From the NCBI RefSeq assembly GCF_001677475.2, contig NZ_CP015229.1: a DNA stretch of 64,000 nt. One strand, 5' to 3'. Source of the DNA: Escherichia coli. Lineage in GTDB: Bacteria > Pseudomonadota > Gammaproteobacteria > Enterobacterales > Enterobacteriaceae. Both the position numbers and the translations under genes were made by a program. A model generated the notes under the pieces. That model was not told the origin of the DNA and did no database searches. It saw nothing but the letters and a program-made list of their open reading frames with translations. This document shows, piece after piece, positions 16,709 through 39,836 of the stretch. How positions within the stretch are numbered: position 1 is the stretch's first letter; each line of letters opens with the position of its first letter.

Positions 16709-18245
16709 AATAGTCATTAAACCGAATACCTATTTTGATTCTGTCTCGCTGATGTCTATCTCCACGCGTGCAAATAAACTCGACGGCGTCGAGCAGGCAT
16801 TTGTGGCGATGGCGACCGAAATGAACAAAGGCGTACTGAAGAATTTAGGGCTGCTGACGCCGGAGCTGGAGCAGGCGAAAAACGGCGACCTGATGATTGT
16901 CATCAATGGTAAATCGGGTGCGGACAACGAGCAGTTGCTGGTGGAGATTGAAGAACTGTTCAACACCAAAGCGCAAAGCGGCTCGCACGAGGCGCGTTAC
17001 GCCACTATTGCCAGCGCCAAAAAGCATATCCCGGAAAGTAACCTGGCAGTGATTTCGGTCAACGGCCTGTTTGCCGCTCGTGAAGCGCGTCAGGCGCTGC
17101 AAAATGATCTCAACGTGATGCTGTTTTCCGATAACGTCTCGGTTGAAGATGAACTGGCTCTCAAGCAGCTGGCCCACGAAAAAGGGCTGCTGATGATGGG
17201 GCCAGACTGCGGCACGGCGATCATCAACGGCGCGGCGCTCTGCTTTGGTAACGCCGTGCGTCGCGGCAACATCGGTATTGTTGGCGCATCCGGCACCGGT
17301 AGCCAGGAACTGAGCGTCCGCATTCATGAATTTGGCGGCGGCGTTTCGCAACTGATTGGCACCGGTGGGCGCGACCTGAGCGAGAAAATCGGCGGCCTGA
17401 TGATGCTCGACGCCATCGGGATGCTGGAAAACGATCCGCAAACTGAAATCATTGTGCTTATCTCCAAACCGCCTGCGCCTGCGGTGGCCCGCAAAGTGCT
17501 GGAACGCGCACGTGCCTGCCGCAAGCCGGTGGTGGTCTGCTTCCTCGGTCGTGGCGAAACGCCAGTGGATGAGCAGGGGCTACAGTTTGCTCGCGGCAGC
17601 AAAGAAGCGGCGCTGAAAGCGGTAATGCTCTCCGGCGTGAAACAGGAACATCTCGAGCTGCATACGCTGAACCAGCCGTTGATTGCTGACGTGCGCGCTC
17701 GCCTGCAACCGCAGCAGAAATACATTCGTGGCCTGTTCTGCGGCGGTACGCTGTGTGACGAAACCATGTTCGCGGTGATGGAAAAACACGGCGATGTCTA
17801 CAGCAACATCCAGCCCGATCCTGAATTCCGCCTGAAAGATATCAACCGCAGCGTCAAACATACCTTCCTCGACTTTGGCGATGACGACTTCACCAACGGT
17901 AAGCCGCATCCAATGATTGACCCCACCAACCGTATCAGCCGCTTGATCGAAGAGGCGCGCGATCCAGAAGTGGCGGTGATCGTGATGGATTTTGTGCTCG
18001 GATTTGGATCGCATGAAGATCCGGTTGGTTCCACCATTGAAGCGATCAAAGAAGCGAAAGCGATCGCCGCTGCCGAAGGACGCGAGTTGATCATTCTCGC
18101 CTATGTGCTGGGTACCGATCTTGATACGCCATCGTTAGAACAACAAAGCCAGATGCTGCTTGATGCCGGAGTGATTCTGGCGAGCAGCAGCACCAATACC
18201 GGATTGCTGGCGCGTGAATTTATCTGCAAAGGGGAGGAAGCCTGA
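16698..18245 (+). CDS. yahF: FdrA-like acyl-CoA synthetase (NDP-forming) / succinyl-CoA-ligase-alpha-like protein
   Basis: 515 aa; CoA-ligase-like glycine-rich motifs (IGIVGASGTG, CGGTLCDE); stop overlaps the yahG start. Confidence 0.8.
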   Translation: MSVKIVIKPNTYFDSVSLMSISTRANKLDGVEQAFVAMATEMNKGVLKNLGLLTPELEQAKNGDLMIVINGKSGADNEQLLVEIEELFNTKAQSGSHEARYATIASAKKHIPESNLAVISVNGLFAAREARQALQNDLNVMLFSDNVSVEDELALKQLAHEKGLLMMGPDCGTAIINGAALCFGNAVRRGNIGIVGASGTGSQELSVRIHEFGGGVSQLIGTGGRDLSEKIGGLMMLDAIGMLENDPQTEIIVLISKPPAPAVARKVLERARACRKPVVVCFLGRGETPVDEQGLQFARGSKEAALKAVMLSGVKQEHLELHTLNQPLIADVRARLQPQQKYIRGLFCGGTLCDETMFAVMEKHGDVYSNIQPDPEFRLKDINRSVKHTFLDFGDDDFTNGKPHPMIDPTNRISRLIEEARDPEVAVIVMDFVLGFGSHEDPVGSTIEAIKEAKAIAAAEGRELIILAYVLGTDLDTPSLEQQSQMLLDAGVILASSSTNTGLLAREFICKGEEA

Positions 18246-19663
18246 TGAGCCAGTCACTGTTTAGCCAACCATTGAACGTTATTAACGTCGGCATCGCCAT
18301 GTTTAGCGATGACCTGAAAAAGCAGCATGTAGAAGTGACTCAACTCGACTGGACGCCGCCGGGGCAGGGCAATATGCAGGTGGTGCAGGCGCTGGACAAC
18401 ATTGCCGATTCGCCGCTGGCAGACAAAATCGCCGCCGCTAACCAGCAGGCGCTGGAACGCATTATCCAGTCGCATCCGGTGCTGATTGGTTTTGATCAGG
18501 CGATTAACGTGGTGCCGGGCATGACGCCGAAAACCATTCTTCACGCCGGGCCGCCAGTGACCTGGGAAAAAATGTGCGGCGCGATGAAAGGCGCGGTCAC
18601 CGGGGCGCTGGTGTTCGAAGGGCTGGCGAAAGACCTCGACGAGGCGGCTGAACTGGCGGCTTCCGGGGAGATCACCTTCTCGCCGTGCCACGAACACGAC
18701 TGTGTGGGATCGATGGCGGGTGTTACCTCGGCCTCGATGTTTATGCACATCGTAAAAAACAAAACCTACGGCAACATCGCTTATACCAACATGAGCGAGC
18801 AGATGGCGAAGATTTTGCGTATGGGCGCCAACGACCAGAGCGTGATCGACCGCCTCAACTGGATGCGCGATGTGCAGGGACCAATGCTGCGCGACGCGAT
18901 GAAAATTATCGGTGAGATCGATCTGCGCTTAATGCTGGCGCAGGCGCTGCATATGGGCGATGAGTGTCATAACCGCAATAACGCCGGGACGACGCTGCTG
19001 ATTCAGGCGCTGACGCCGGGGATTATTCAGGCGGGCTATTCCGTCGAGCAACAGCGCGAAGTGTTTGAGTTTGTCGCCAGCAGCGACTACTTCTCCGGCC
19101 CGACGTGGATGGCGATGTGTAAAGCGGCGATGGATGCGGCGCACGGCATCGAATACAGCACCGTGGTCACCACGATGGCGCGTAACGGCGTCGAGTTCGG
19201 TCTGCGGGTCAGCGGATTACCGGGGCAATGGTTTACCGGTCCGGCGCAGCAGGTGATCGGCCCGATGTTTGCCGGTTATAAGCCGGAAGATTCGGGGCTG
19301 GATATCGGCGACAGCGCCATCACCGAAACCTACGGCATTGGCGGATTTGCTATGGCGACCGCGCCCGCTATCGTCGCGCTGGTGGGCGGCACGGTGGAAG
19401 AGGCTATCGATTTCTCCCGTCAGATGCGTGAAATCACTCTCGGCGAAAACCCTAACGTGACCATTCCGCTGCTCGGTTTTATGGGTGTGCCGACGGCAAT
19501 CGACATCACCCGCGTGGGTAGCAGTGGCATTCTGCCGGTGATCAACACCGCCATCGCTCATAAAGATGCGGGCATCGGCATGATTGGCGCGGGCATTGTG
19601 CATCCACCATTCGCCTGCTTCGAAAAAGCCATTCTTGGCTGGTGCGAACGTTACGGCATCTGA
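18245..19663 (+). CDS. yahG: conserved protein of unknown function, partner of yahF
   Basis: 472-aa ORF translationally coupled to yahF (ATGA overlap). Confidence 0.75.
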   Translation: MSQSLFSQPLNVINVGIAMFSDDLKKQHVEVTQLDWTPPGQGNMQVVQALDNIADSPLADKIAAANQQALERIIQSHPVLIGFDQAINVVPGMTPKTILHAGPPVTWEKMCGAMKGAVTGALVFEGLAKDLDEAAELAASGEITFSPCHEHDCVGSMAGVTSASMFMHIVKNKTYGNIAYTNMSEQMAKILRMGANDQSVIDRLNWMRDVQGPMLRDAMKIIGEIDLRLMLAQALHMGDECHNRNNAGTTLLIQALTPGIIQAGYSVEQQREVFEFVASSDYFSGPTWMAMCKAAMDAAHGIEYSTVVTTMARNGVEFGLRVSGLPGQWFTGPAQQVIGPMFAGYKPEDSGLDIGDSAITETYGIGGFAMATAPAIVALVGGTVEEAIDFSRQMREITLGENPNVTIPLLGFMGVPTAIDITRVGSSGILPVINTAIAHKDAGIGMIGAGIVHPPFACFEKAILGWCERYGI

Positions 19664-19669
19664 CATGCA

Positions 19670-19886
19670 AAGTGCGCGTTGTCTCTGCCGGATGCGGCGT
19701 GAACGCCTTATCCGGCCTACGAGTGGCGCAAGAACCTGTAGGCCTGATAAGCGTAGCGCATCAGGCATTTTTCACGATTGCCGGATGCGGCGTGAACGCC
19801 TTATCCGGTCTACGAATGGCACAAGAATCTGTAGGCCTGATAAGCGTAGCGCATCAGGCAATTTGGCGTTGGTCATAACCCCATCA
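19670..19886. repeat. REP/BIME array (two tandem ~105-bp units)
   Basis: Tandem near-identical units containing GCCGGATGCGGCGTGAACGCCTTATCCGG and CTGTAGGCCTGATAAGCGTAGCGCATCAGGC palindromic REP motifs. Confidence 0.75.
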
Positions 19887-19909: not shown

Positions 19910-20860
19910 ATGAAAGAACTTGTGGTCGTTGCCATTGGTGGCAACAGCATTATCAAAGATAACGCCAGCCAGTCGATTGAGCATCAGGCGGAGGCGGTGA
20001 AGGCCGTCGCCGATACGGTGCTGGAAATGCTGGCTTCCGATTACGACATTGTGCTGACCCACGGCAACGGACCGCAGGTCGGTTTGGATTTACGCCGCGC
20101 GGAGATTGCCCACGAGCGCGAAGGGTTGCCCTTAACGCCGCTGGCGAACTGTGTGGCGGATACGCAAGGTGGCATTGGCTATCTGATCCAACAGGCGCTG
20201 AACAACCGGCTGGCACGCCACGGCGAGAAAAAAGCCGTCACCGTGGTGACTCAGGTGGAAGTGGATAAAAACGATCCGGGTTTTGCTCATCCCACCAAGC
20301 CCATCGGCGCATTCTTCAGTGAATGCCAGCGTGACGAATTACAAAAGGCAAACCCTGAATGGCGTTTTGTTGAAGATGCCGGACGGGGCTATCGCCGCGT
20401 GGTCGCCTCGCCGGAACCGAAACGTATTGTCGAAGCACCGGCCATTGAGGCATTGATCCAACAAGGCTTTGTGGTCATCGGCGCGGGCGGTGGCGGCATT
20501 CCGGTGGTGCGCAGTGAAGCGGGGGATTACCAAAGCGTGGACGCGGTTATCGACAAAGATCTCTCTACCGCGCTACTGGCCCGCGAAATTCACGCCGACA
20601 TTCTGGTGATCACCACTGGCGTGGAAAAAGTGTGCATTCACTTTGGCAAACCCCAGCAGCAGGCGCTCGATCGGGTGGATATTGCCACCATGACCCGCTA
20701 TATGCAGGAAGGGCATTTCCCGCCCGGCAGCATGTTGCCAAAAATCATTGCCAGCCTGACGTTCCTGGAACAGGGCGGCAAAGAAGTGATTATCACCTCG
20801 CCGGAATGCCTGCCTGCGGCGCTGCGCGGTGAAACGGGCACCCATATCATTAAAACGTAA
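19910..20860 (+). CDS. yahI: carbamate kinase-like protein
   Basis: 316 aa; amino-acid-kinase fold motifs (VVAIGGN..., ILVITTGVEKV) typical of carbamate kinases. Confidence 0.85.
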   Translation: MKELVVVAIGGNSIIKDNASQSIEHQAEAVKAVADTVLEMLASDYDIVLTHGNGPQVGLDLRRAEIAHEREGLPLTPLANCVADTQGGIGYLIQQALNNRLARHGEKKAVTVVTQVEVDKNDPGFAHPTKPIGAFFSECQRDELQKANPEWRFVEDAGRGYRRVVASPEPKRIVEAPAIEALIQQGFVVIGAGGGGIPVVRSEAGDYQSVDAVIDKDLSTALLAREIHADILVITTGVEKVCIHFGKPQQQALDRVDIATMTRYMQEGHFPPGSMLPKIIASLTFLEQGGKEVIITSPECLPAALRGETGTHIIKT

Positions 20861-37162: not shown

Positions 37163-39049
37163 ATGTCTTTTAGCGAATTTTATCAGCGTTCGATTAACGA
37201 ACCGGAGAAGTTCTGGGCCGAGCAGGCCCGGCGTATTGACTGGCAGACGCCCTTTACGCAAACGCTCGATCACAGCAATCCGCCGTTTGCCCGTTGGTTT
37301 TGTGAAGGCCGAACCAACTTGTGCCACAACGCTATCGACCGCTGGCTGGAGAAACAGCCAGAGGCGCTGGCGCTGATTGCCGTCTCTTCGGAAACAGAAG
37401 AAGAGCGCACCTTTACCTTCCGCCAGTTACATGACGAAGTGAATGCGGTGGCCTCAATGCTGCGCTCGCTGGGTGTGCAGCGCGGCGATCGGGTGCTGGT
37501 GTATATGCCGATGATTGCCGAAGCACATATTACTCTGCTGGCTTGCGCGCGCATTGGCGCTATTCACTCGGTGGTGTTTGGGGGATTTGCCTCGCACAGC
37601 GTGGCGGCGCGAATTGATGATGCTAAACCGGTGCTGATTGTCTCGGCTGATGCCGGAGCGCGCGGTGGCAAAATCATTCCCTATAAAAAATTGCTCGACG
37701 ATGCGATAAGTCAGGCGCAGCACCAGCCACGCCATGTTTTGCTGGTGGATCGCGGGCTGGCGAAAATGGCACGCGTCAGCGGGCGGGATGTCGATTTCGC
37801 GTCGTTGCGCCATCAACACATCGGCGCGCGGGTACCGGTGGCGTGGCTGGAATCCAATGAAACCTCCTGCATTCTCTACACCTCCGGCACGACCGGCAAA
37901 CCTAAAGGCGTGCAGCGTGACGTTGGCGGATATGCGGTGGCGCTGGCGACCTCGATGGACACCATTTTTGGCGGCAAAGCGGGCGGTGTGTTCTTTTGTG
38001 CTTCGGATATCGGCTGGGTGGTGGGGCATTCGTATATCGTCTACGCGCCGCTGCTGGCGGGGATGGCGACTATCGTTTACGAAGGATTACCGACCTGGCC
38101 GGACTGCGGCGTGTGGTGGAAAATCGTCGAGAAATATCAGGTTAGCCGGATGTTCTCAGCGCCGACCGCCATTCGCGTGCTGAAAAAATTCCCTACCGCT
38201 GAAATTCGCAAACACGATCTTTCGTCGCTGGAAGTGCTCTATCTGGCGGGAGAACCGCTGGACGAGCCGACCGCCAGTTGGGTGAGCAATACGCTGGATG
38301 TGCCGGTCATCGACAACTACTGGCAGACCGAATCCGGCTGGCCGATTATGGCGATTGCTCGTGGTCTGGACGACAGGCCGACGCGGCTGGGAAGCCCCGG
38401 CGTGCCGATGTATGGCTACAACGTGCAGTTGCTCAATGAAGTCACTGGTGAGCCGTGTGGTGTCAATGAGAAAGGGATGCTGGTGGTGGAAGGACCATTG
38501 CCGCCGGGCTGTATTCAGACCATCTGGGGCGATGACGACCGCTTTGTGAAGACTTACTGGTCGCTGTTTTCCCGTCCGGTTTACGCCACGTTTGACTGGG
38601 GTATCCGCGACGCTGACGGTTATCACTTTATTCTCGGGCGTACCGACGATGTGATTAACGTTGCCGGGCATCGGCTGGGAACGCGCGAGATTGAAGAGAG
38701 TATTTCCAGTCATCCGGGCGTTGCCGAAGTGGCGGTGGTTGGGGTGAAAGATGCGCTGAAAGGGCAGGTGGCGGTGGCGTTTGTCATTCCGAAAGAGAGC
38801 GATAGTCTGGAAGACCGCGACGTGGCGCACTCGCAAGAGAAGGCGATTATGGCGCTGGTGGACAGCCAGATTGGCAACTTTGGCCGCCCGGCGCACGTCT
38901 GGTTTGTCTCGCAATTGCCGAAAACGAGATCCGGAAAAATGCTGCGCCGCACGATCCAGGCGATTTGCGAAGGACGCGATCCGGGGGATCTGACAACCAT
39001 TGATGATCCTGCGTCGTTGGATCAGATCCGCCAGGCGATGGAAGAGTAA
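37163..39049 (+). CDS. prpE: propionyl-CoA synthetase
   Basis: 628 aa; acyl-CoA synthetase AMP-binding motif (YTSGTTGKPKG). Confidence 0.9.
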   Translation: MSFSEFYQRSINEPEKFWAEQARRIDWQTPFTQTLDHSNPPFARWFCEGRTNLCHNAIDRWLEKQPEALALIAVSSETEEERTFTFRQLHDEVNAVASMLRSLGVQRGDRVLVYMPMIAEAHITLLACARIGAIHSVVFGGFASHSVAARIDDAKPVLIVSADAGARGGKIIPYKKLLDDAISQAQHQPRHVLLVDRGLAKMARVSGRDVDFASLRHQHIGARVPVAWLESNETSCILYTSGTTGKPKGVQRDVGGYAVALATSMDTIFGGKAGGVFFCASDIGWVVGHSYIVYAPLLAGMATIVYEGLPTWPDCGVWWKIVEKYQVSRMFSAPTAIRVLKKFPTAEIRKHDLSSLEVLYLAGEPLDEPTASWVSNTLDVPVIDNYWQTESGWPIMAIARGLDDRPTRLGSPGVPMYGYNVQLLNEVTGEPCGVNEKGMLVVEGPLPPGCIQTIWGDDDRFVKTYWSLFSRPVYATFDWGIRDADGYHFILGRTDDVINVAGHRLGTREIEESISSHPGVAEVAVVGVKDALKGQVAVAFVIPKESDSLEDRDVAHSQEKAIMALVDSQIGNFGRPAHVWFVSQLPKTRSGKMLRRTIQAICEGRDPGDLTTIDDPASLDQIRQAMEE

Positions 39050-39320
39050 AGTATTGTCGGATGCGTCGCGCGCCGCATCCGACACCATGCGCAGATGCCT
39101 GATGCGACGCTGGCGCGTCTTATCATGCCTACAGGTCTGAACCGTAGGTCGGATAAGGCGCTCGCGCCGCATCCGACACCGTGCGCAGATGCCTGATGCG
39201 ACGCTGGCGCGTCTTATCATGCCTACAAGTCTGAACCGTAGGTCGGATAAGGCGCTCGCGCCGCATCCGACACCGTGCGCAGATGCCTGATGCGACGCTG
39301 GCGCGTCTTATCATGCCTAC
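39050..39320. repeat. REP/BIME array (three tandem ~119-bp units)
   Basis: Three near-identical copies of ...GCCGCATCCGACACCGTGCGCAGATGCCTGATGCGACGCTGGCGCGTCTTATCATGCCTAC... after prpE. Confidence 0.75.
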
Positions 39321-39472
39321 CCACTGTTTTTACACCGATAATTTTTCCCCCACCTTTTTGCGCTCATTCATATAAAAAATATATTTCCCCACGGAAACGA
39401 TTGCTTTTTATTTTCAGATGAATAGAATGCGGCGGATTTTTTGGGTTTCAAACAGCAAAAAGGGGGAATTTC

Positions 39473-39836
39473 GTGTCGCAAGATAACAACTTTAGCCAGG
39501 GGCCAGTCCCGCAGTCGGCGCGGAAAGGGGTATTGGCATTGACGTTCGTCATGCTGGGATTAACCTTCTTTTCCGCCAGTATGTGGACCGGCGGCACTCT
39601 CGGAACCGGTCTTAGCTATCATGATTTCTTCCTCGCAGTTCTCATCGGTAATCTTCTCCTCGGTATTTACACTTCATTTCTTGGTTACATTGGCGCAAAA
39701 ACCGGCCTGACCACTCATCTTCTTGCTCGCTTCTCGTTTGGTGTTAAAGGCTCATGGCTGCCTTCACTGCTGCTGGGCGGCACCCAGGTTGGCTGGTTTG
39801 GCGTTGGCGTGGCGATGTTTGCTATTCCGGTGGGCA
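39473..39836 (+). pseudogene. codB: cytosine permease CodB, 5' fragment (first ~121 codons) cut by element insertion
   Basis: Frame MSQDNNFSQGPVPQSARKG... matches the CodB N-terminus up to ...AIPVG, then diverges into element sequence and stops. Confidence 0.85.

Follow-up and report, generated by a model that had tools for sequence, protein, structure and literature searches.

REP/BIME hairpin clusters of strain-dependent copy number downstream of prpE and yahG in Escherichia coli

What occupies the spacers behind prpE and yahG in the chromosome of Escherichia coli, and what might its presence mean for the neighboring genes? The question is raised by a stretch of 64,000 nucleotides (NCBI RefSeq assembly GCF_001677475.2, contig NZ_CP015229.1; hereafter, the window), in which a first-pass annotation, made from the sequence alone, described tandem arrays of palindromic units in both intergenic regions. 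The window is a piece of Escherichia chromosome, ~96-97.6% identical to most complete E. coli genomes, with the gene order betA-betB-betI-betT, ehaA, pdeL, yahB to yahJ, prpR-prpBCDE and codB. Both are clusters of REP/BIME hairpins of a kind that is ordinary and well known in E. coli, and their copy number depends on the strain; published definitions class the one at prpE-codB as a BIME-2 and the one at yahG-yahI as an atypical BIME. The joint explanation, which combines this identity with probable roles as hairpins of 3' untranslated regions and as gyrase sites, is highly probable. The REPs and BIMEs, their variable copy number, the phantom ORFs that they create and their targeting by IS621 are all textbook or published knowledge, so that nothing new is claimed for the arrays as such.

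The arrays proved real in both intergenic regions and far beyond chance; Tandem Repeats Finder and a separate repeat search agree on their registers, and the latter also detects nested inverted repeats. Run on the whole window, Tandem Repeats Finder reports a repeat at 39069-39320 (period 94, 2.7 copies, 98% matches, score 490) in the prpE-codB spacer and another at 19686-19864 (period 93, 1.9 copies, 94% matches, score 323) in the yahG-yahI spacer, which confirms the repeat structure; a scan for REP head and foot motifs located two REP clusters only in the 64-kb window. The prpE-codB array consists of three y/z2 REP pairs in alternating orientation, and its 94-bp period is the sum 35+12+36+11 (y, head-to-head linker, z2 and tail-to-tail linker). 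The yahG-yahI array comprises two y/z1 pairs in the order y(+), z1(-), y(+), z1(-), and its 93-bp period decomposes into 35+17+29+12 (y, 17-nt linker, z1 and 12-nt linker). These periods replace the unit length of ~105-119 bp that had been given initially, whereas the initial counts of three units after prpE and two after yahG are right if a unit is taken to be a pair of oppositely oriented REPs. The ranges first assigned to the arrays, 39050-39320 and 19670-19886, do enclose them, but the true limits are 39055-39320 and 19686-19859. Both arrays are extragenic, lying between a stop codon and the next start, and each lies in the 3' untranslated region of its upstream gene, the next gene being co-directional (Table 1).

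Table 1. Positions of the arrays, their components and the neighboring features in the window.
Feature	Position	Strand	Remarks
betT fragments	4177-5811 and 7187-7586		
IS110-family element, 1375 bp, inside betT	5812-7186	-	by comparison with intact betT
Transposase gene of the betT element	6982-5996		
Predicted guide loop of the betT element	around 7123-7076		
yahG	18245-19663	+	stop 22 nt before the first REP
78-aa ORF	19642-19878	+	corresponds to K-12 'YahH'; reads through the 93-bp repeat in frame
y REP no. 1 (yahG array), TGCCGGATGCGGCGTGAACGCCTTATCCGGCCTAC	19686-19720	+	hairpin -21.3 kcal/mol, z -5.0
Tail-to-tail linker, 17 nt, GAGTGGCGCAAGAACCT	19721-19737; also 19814-19830		
z1 REP no. 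1	19738-19766	-	exact IS621 target ATCAGGCCTAC at 19738-19748 (-)
naRNA4 (RF02564) match	19741-19810	-	
Head-to-head linker, 12 nt, ATTTTTCACGAT	19767-19778		
y REP no. 2 (yahG array)	19779-19813	+	foot GGTCTAC
z1 REP no. 2	19831-19859	-	exact IS621 target at 19831-19841 (-)
yahI (carbamate kinase family)	19910-20860	+	
prpE (propionate--CoA ligase)	37163-39049	+	last gene of prpBCDE; from the ORF and annotation of syntenic records
Degenerate y-type REP, left array end	39055-39084		near-perfect palindrome TGTCGGATGCGTCGC/GCGCCGCATCCGACA, without GTAG/CTAC foot
Head-to-head linker, 12 nt, CCATGCGCAGAT	39085-39096; also 39179-39190, 39273-39284		
z2 REP no. 1, GCCTGATGCGACGCTGGCGCGTCTTATCATGCCTAC	39097-39132	+	foot ATCATGCCTAC; hairpin -14.8 kcal/mol
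Tail-to-tail linker, 11 nt, AGGTCTGAACC	39133-39143; also 39227-39237		
y REP no. 1 (prpE array), GTCGGAT...ATCCGAC variant	39144-39178	-	GTAG foot on the + strand; hairpin -18.8 kcal/mol
naRNA4 (RF02564) match	39147-39223	+	
z2 REP no. 2	39191-39226	+	identical to z2 nos. 1 and 3
y REP no. 2 (prpE array)	39238-39272	-	identical to y REP no. 1 of the prpE array
naRNA4 (RF02564) match	39241-39317	+	
z2 REP no. 3, right array end	39285-39320	+	
Conserved codBA upstream region	39321-39472		directly after the last z2 REP
codB 5' fragment, codons 1-121	39473-39836	+	cut by prophage; from the ORF

The types of REPs were called with regular-expression patterns built on the y, z1 and z2 consensus, and all ten elements of the two arrays fit these patterns at every fixed position. 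The matched REPs are also identical or nearly identical to the three REPs that Durrant et al. (PMC11208160) give as queries in their methods, and the CTAC foot is found at the end of 9 of the 10 elements, the exception being the leftmost palindrome of the prpE array. This degenerate y is an inverted repeat with 93% complementarity (hairpin -19.5 kcal/mol, z -3.74), and it was found in every strain compared by alignment. The elements are dispersed rather than specific to these loci, with medians of at least 15 and at least 33 places per E. coli genome among the matches listed in BLAST searches with the spacers. The consensus, the CTAC/GTAG foot, the alternating orientation and the extragenic position together bear out the original naming of the arrays as REP/BIME. 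Curated REP features were looked for in the K-12 RefSeq record, and none are present there.

Three kinds of BIMEs have been distinguished (Ton-Hoang et al. 2012, PMC3333891): BIME-1, composed of z1 and y, which occurs singly and has a long L linker often containing an IHF site; BIME-2, composed of z2 and y, which forms tandem copies with short linkers; and atypical BIMEs, which are chimeric combinations in multiple copies. According to the same source, the number of BIMEs per locus differs between strains. The prpE-codB array is a BIME-2 because it joins y and z2 in opposite orientation, in tandem and with short linkers (12 and 11 nt, likened to those of BIME-2 by length alone). It shares with the BIME-2 of the Gilson/Bachellier classification the alternation of y and z2, the short linkers, the well-conserved tandem copies and the strain-variable number, and differs in the foot-less degenerate y at its left end and in the feet of z2, all three of which read CATGCCTAC in place of CAGGCCTAC; this G-to-T change adds a mismatch to the stem and weakens the hairpin to -14.8 kcal/mol. 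For the yahG-yahI array, the content of y and z1 suggested BIME-1, an assignment rejected on copy number and linker length: instead of a single copy with a long L linker, the array has tandem units, two in the window and as many as four in K-12, joined across a 17-nt linker (GAGTGGCGCAAGAACCT) in which no IHF consensus is visible. This array is an atypical BIME because it contains the BIME-1 pair of REPs in multiple copies but without the long L linker, that is, z1 and y in tandem with short, BIME-2-like linkers. Neither array belongs to a REPtron, given that the flanking genes are prpE/codB and yahG/yahI, with no gene for a Y1 transposase beside the arrays.

The capacity to form hairpins extends to the individual elements. 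Single REPs fold at -12.9 to -21.3 kcal/mol, with z between -2.7 and -5.0 against dinucleotide shuffles, and the whole arrays fold with z of -4.85 and -3.17. The y variants of the two arrays (GCCGGAT...ATCCGGC after yahG versus GTCGGAT...ATCCGAC after prpE) are related by one compensatory change of C-G to U-A, and across nine y copies, 98.6% of the cells are paired, compared with 33-44% when the pairing is slid. The covariation amounts to this one compensatory pair, and the observed score was reached by 33 of the 500 shuffles; it is consistent with the hairpin, with modest and statistically weak support. A scan for terminators and promoters detected no intrinsic (Rho-independent) terminator and no relevant promoter on the + strand of either spacer.

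The first-pass annotation had proposed to compare the copy number across strains, and this number does differ, with 1, 2, 3 or 8 units at prpE-codB and 0 to 4 at yahG-yahI. The prpE-codB spacer is 236 bp long with one unit (2014C-4587), 329 bp with two (K-12 and 39EVA), 423 bp with three (this window and NCTC9080) and 893 and 900 bp with eight (F3398 and S1-CAM-04-C). The yahG-yahI spacer measures 95 bp with no unit (LR-60), 142 or 153 bp with one (ARS-C301 and XYEH3783), 246 bp with two (this window and 20Ec-P-124), 329 bp with three (ATCC 25922) and 421 bp with four (K-12). In the alignments, the differences between spacers are whole units in register, and the flanks are invariant. Judging from an evenly spaced sample of 40-45 BLAST rows per locus, which gives rough frequencies and not a census, the commonest state at prpE-codB is two units, followed by one unit, and the commonest states at yahG-yahI are one unit and the K-12-like long form. 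The prpE units of the window are 97.9-100% identical among themselves, compared with 86-94% among the units of NCTC9080, and are 88-95% identical to the units at the same positions in NCTC9080, the flanks being 96-98% identical. These comparisons indicate a recent duplication or conversion inside the prpE array of the window.

Several local features emerged from the same alignments. In several strains, homology stops exactly at 39320, which suggested an insertion sequence in a REP; the break was traced to an eight-unit array left unjoined by BLAST. In S1-CAM-04-C, the last z2 foot of the eight-unit array is immediately followed by a 7-bp direct duplication, CCCACTA CCCACTG (retrieved locus 4290-4310), which is absent in the window and in the other strains. 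The stop codon of prpE (within 39047-39055) is TAA in the window and in 2014C-4587 and TAG in three other aligned strains, and the first palindrome starts 5 nt further on. Liang, Rudd and Deutscher are said to have reported in 2015 that REPs located less than ~15 nt from a stop codon lower the translation upstream via ribosome stalling and tmRNA. Beyond the array, codB is split by a prophage-like insert of ~23.1 kb (39837-62918), so that bases 1-364 of the gene lie at 39473-39836 and bases 361-1260 at 62919-63818. The insert encodes the small and large terminases, a portal, a major head protein, a tail fibre, an Ant-like anti-repressor and, near its right end, a 565-aa large serine recombinase (60012-61709, - strand); in strain 39EVA, codB is interrupted at the same point. 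At the other end of the window, the ~6-kb hyxR-hyxA-hyxB-ipbA island, found between ykgH and betA in ARS-C301 and 20Ec-P-124, is apparently lacking (window 1-272 versus positions 1-6275 and 1-6084, respectively, of the loci from these strains), and a 22-kb query from the window spans 26.4-27.9 kb in both.

A near counterpart of these arrays is REP325, a BIME of six units located between yjdM and yjdN, one unit of which is naRNA4 (Qian et al. 2015, PMC4550694). A scan of the window at the Rfam gathering thresholds returned three matches only, all to naRNA4 (RF02564), with scores of 72.2, 72.2 and 66.9 bits against a gathering threshold of 59.5. Both arrays resemble REP325 in the architecture of y hairpin, short linker and z2 or z1 hairpin, in the covariance-model scores above gathering and in the 3' position within a co-directional gene pair; they differ in being located at other loci and in having fewer units, and the role of REP325 itself in the nucleoid is disputed. 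The matches could be taken to mean that the units are genes for nucleoid sRNAs of the naRNA4 kind, which bind HU, bridge cruciform DNA and condense the chromosome, as in the model originally put forward by Qian et al. (2015, PMC4550694). This is very unlikely. The naRNA4 model was built on a single y+z2 unit of REP325, so that any BIME unit scores by virtue of shared sequence, not shared function, and the 77-nt unit folds no better than shuffles (z -1.56). Furthermore, Harris et al. (2026, bioRxiv 10.64898/2026.03.23.713779), among them the senior author of the original model, saw nucleoid volume unaffected by REP325 or the naRNAs, and their Hi-C showed no contacts between REPs. The Rfam matches therefore restate the resemblance of the BIME units to REP325.

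The same preprint (10.64898/2026.03.23.713779) offers a different role, in which REP325 is both a partly Rho-dependent terminator and a stabilizer of the upstream mRNA, and tandem gene pairs that contain REPs are biased genome-wide toward upstream expression. Applied to both loci, the published mechanisms most likely translate as follows. The row of hairpins, once transcribed, would most likely block 3'-to-5' exonucleases and thereby stabilize the prpE and yahG messages, and the arrays would probably act as leaky, partly Rho-dependent terminators that limit read-through into codBA and yahI. At the level of DNA, the y REPs of the BIME-2 are likely gyrase sites; cleavage by gyrase is enriched in BIME-2, mainly at y REPs, and is known for some BIME-2, among which the prpE-codB locus is not named (PMC6379681). 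The number of units would change when units recombine unequally, slip or undergo gene conversion, and/or through cleavage and strand exchange by the REP-associated Y1 transposase TnpA(REP), an enzyme with in vitro cleavage and recombination activity on BIMEs (Ton-Hoang et al. 2012, PMC3333891). Any effect of the arrays is probably modest because strains with no unit or one unit seem to do well.

How much of this bears on the neighboring genes is the point at which a competing explanation departs. The arrays might be selfish or neutral DNA with no function, which the REP-associated transposase has spread, recombination has expanded and the genome tolerates as harmless intergenic sequence. This explanation agrees with the preferred one on the origin of the arrays and differs only on their effect on the neighbors. 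It is a real possibility, although clearly the less probable of the two. Natural copy numbers of 0-4 and 1-8 with no visible constraint are what it would predict, as is the existence of one strain without REPs at yahG-yahI, and the effects of REPs are reported to be variable and dependent on context, with half-lives not uniformly lengthened (10.64898/2026.03.23.713779). Set against this are the preservation of hairpin potential through a compensatory change and the drop of more than 160-fold in upstream mRNA upon deletion of REP325 from a plasmid construct (10.64898/2026.03.23.713779). The REP-less strain itself points the same way: in LR-60, the yahG-yahI spacer contains a different hairpin in its predicted fold, with a 10-bp stem (CCUUCUCCCU / GGGGAGAAGG; retrieved locus 365-459), which suggests that one 3' hairpin may have been replaced by another and hence that some 3' hairpin may be useful there. 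A bolder extension of the role in mRNA stability and termination, that array length (1-8 units after prpE and 0-4 after yahG) is a heritable, fast-mutating dial of expression, is doubtful. If it were true, more hairpins would mean more stable prpBCDE and yahDEFG messages and less read-through into codBA and yahI, and the freshly homogenized three-unit prpE array of the window would represent a recent adjustment of the lineage, not neutral drift.

As the first-pass annotation noted, the arrays generate spurious ORFs on both strands. On the + strand, the prpE array is crossed by three ORFs (33, 33 and 46 aa); on the - strand, there are ORFs of 61, 34 and 33 aa and one of 354 aa, which begins within the array and extends through prpE in antisense; the yahG array gives ORFs of 109 and 78 aa (+) and of 183 and 96 aa (-). 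A 93-bp unit is exactly 31 codons long, which leaves one frame open across all units of the yahG array, whereas a period of 94 bp interrupts the frame with every unit, so that the prpE array yields only short ORFs. The K-12 gene yahH (b0322, 106 aa) lies wholly inside the four-unit array of that strain and reads as repeats of a 31-residue peptide, and hypothetical proteins annotated by PGAP are found in the yahG-yahI spacers of 20Ec-P-124 and ATCC 25922. These annotations, together with the 84-91% identity of the 78-aa ORF of the window to K-12 YahH, would be expected if real small proteins were encoded here, which is nevertheless scarcely credible. The YahH 'protein' is the 31-residue peptide, which recurs with each 93-bp unit; its length tracks the copy number of the REPs, and arrays of 0-1 units lack it; the prpE-codB array contains ORFs of only 33-61 aa owing to the broken frame; and the conserved features of the arrays are the hairpins and the GTAG foot, not the reading frame. 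The ORFs that cross the arrays are best read as translations of repeats, not as genes.

The remaining claim about the arrays concerned insertion sequences, as the yahG array was said to contain a target of the IS621 class. The natural target of IS621 is the 11-nt ATCAGGCCTAC, and in a genomic assay, 144 of the 173 insertion sites of this element were in REPs, a mismatch at position 4 being tolerated (Durrant et al. 2024, PMC11208160). The search for the 11-nt ATCAGGCCTAC (or ATCGGGCCTAC) with its CT core found exact ATCAGGCCTAC in only two places in the window, which are the two z1 REPs of the yahG array, both on the minus strand; the claim was thus correct. A single mismatch separates the target from the three z2 feet (ATCATGCCTAC) and from one y foot (ATCCGGCCTAC), which brings the matches with at most one mismatch to 6 in the window, against 0.78 expected from shuffles. 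The z1 REPs are potential landing sites for IS621, yet no insertion is present in either array, the spacing of 93 and 94 bp being regular. It is very unlikely, despite the two exact targets and the preference of IS621 for REPs, that the main significance of the arrays is to provide landing pads for IS110-family elements that target REPs, such as IS621. Both arrays are uninterrupted, the long spacers of other strains are longer arrays and not insertions, the element behind the sole IS110-family gene of the window has another guide and another target, and serving as a target characterizes REPs without amounting to a function. IS621 itself is absent from the window, the IS110-family element of which differs in its donor junction, ACTAAACACGGTAG-CT-TGTATGTAATC, and, unlike IS621, targets CCCCATCAT-CT-GTTGA beside plasmid ssb genes.

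The position of this element in betT rather than in a REP had been implied to be a puzzle. The transposase gene does lie inside betT; it encodes 328 aa with both IS110 Pfam domains and is, by tblastn, the only gene of the IS110 type in the window, and a CT dinucleotide flanks the element on each side in the orientation of the transposase. Another ORF of 328 aa (42060-43046, -) was considered as a second IS110 copy and dismissed, as it has neither similarity nor a Pfam domain. Across 5,426 complete E. coli genomes, the element occupies 298 places, of which 292 are plasmid sites, typically beside ssb, and six plasmid copies have the common target CCCCATCAT-CT-GTTGAGT, or CT-TTTGAGT at a second site. 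At the left end of the element, ACCUACCCCAUCAUCU is followed by a small hairpin, AAGGU-AAUA-ACCUU, and then by CGUCAACAGCUAUAG; in the minimum-energy fold, both stretches face each other across one internal loop (ACCUACCCCAUCAUCU / CGUCAACAG), and this predicted loop has the same layout as the target-binding loop of the IS621 bridge RNA (PMC11208160). The left stretch of the predicted guide equals the left plasmid target plus the core at 11 of 11 positions, and the right stretch is complementary to the core plus GTTGA at 7 of 7. The betT site, ctCCATCAT-CT-GTTtA, agrees with the guide at 10 of 11 and 6 of 7 positions and has two mismatches to the plasmid target. The same relation of guide to target is seen in other chromosomal copies, which are located in a gene for an APC permease and at a yifB junction.

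The site in betT is occupied in the window and in ARS-C301 by a 99.9% variant, which is also present on two plasmids of ARS-C301, and in the unrelated strain AH19B041 by a 97.1% variant; because two variants of the insertion sequence are found in unrelated strains, the site has probably been hit twice. In the chromosome of GPEC1258 (NZ_CM142782.1 2360587-2362262), found in two places in the record, a copy of the element is bordered by plasmid ssb DNA to the left and by yifB to the right and looks like a fusion or rearrangement of plasmid and chromosome at the insertion sequence. The junction of a circular form of the betT element is predicted to create a promoter, TTGACT-17 nt-TGTAAT. A literature search for a paper on an IS110-family element beside plasmid ssb found none, whereas the supplementary data of Durrant et al. 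(2024, PMC11208160) list the donor junction of the element and its natural targets, including the betT site ACCGTCTCCATCATCTGTTTAGTGTAACGCG. The element is an RNA-guided, mainly plasmid-borne member of the IS110 family, with a predicted guide loop; it is not IS621-class in its choice of target, occupies a site that nearly matches its own guide, and is already catalogued. The puzzle of its position dissolves because the element is not IS621 and betT is a near-cognate of its plasmid target.

The practical value of identifying the arrays as REP/BIME clusters is for annotation: calls similar to yahH and the antisense ORFs of 354 and 183 aa that start inside the arrays should not be annotated as genes, and a match to naRNA4 in Rfam should be read as 'BIME unit' and not as a functional sRNA. 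Strains with 0-4 and 1-8 units at fixed loci constitute a natural allelic series for testing the model of BIMEs as terminators and stabilizers.
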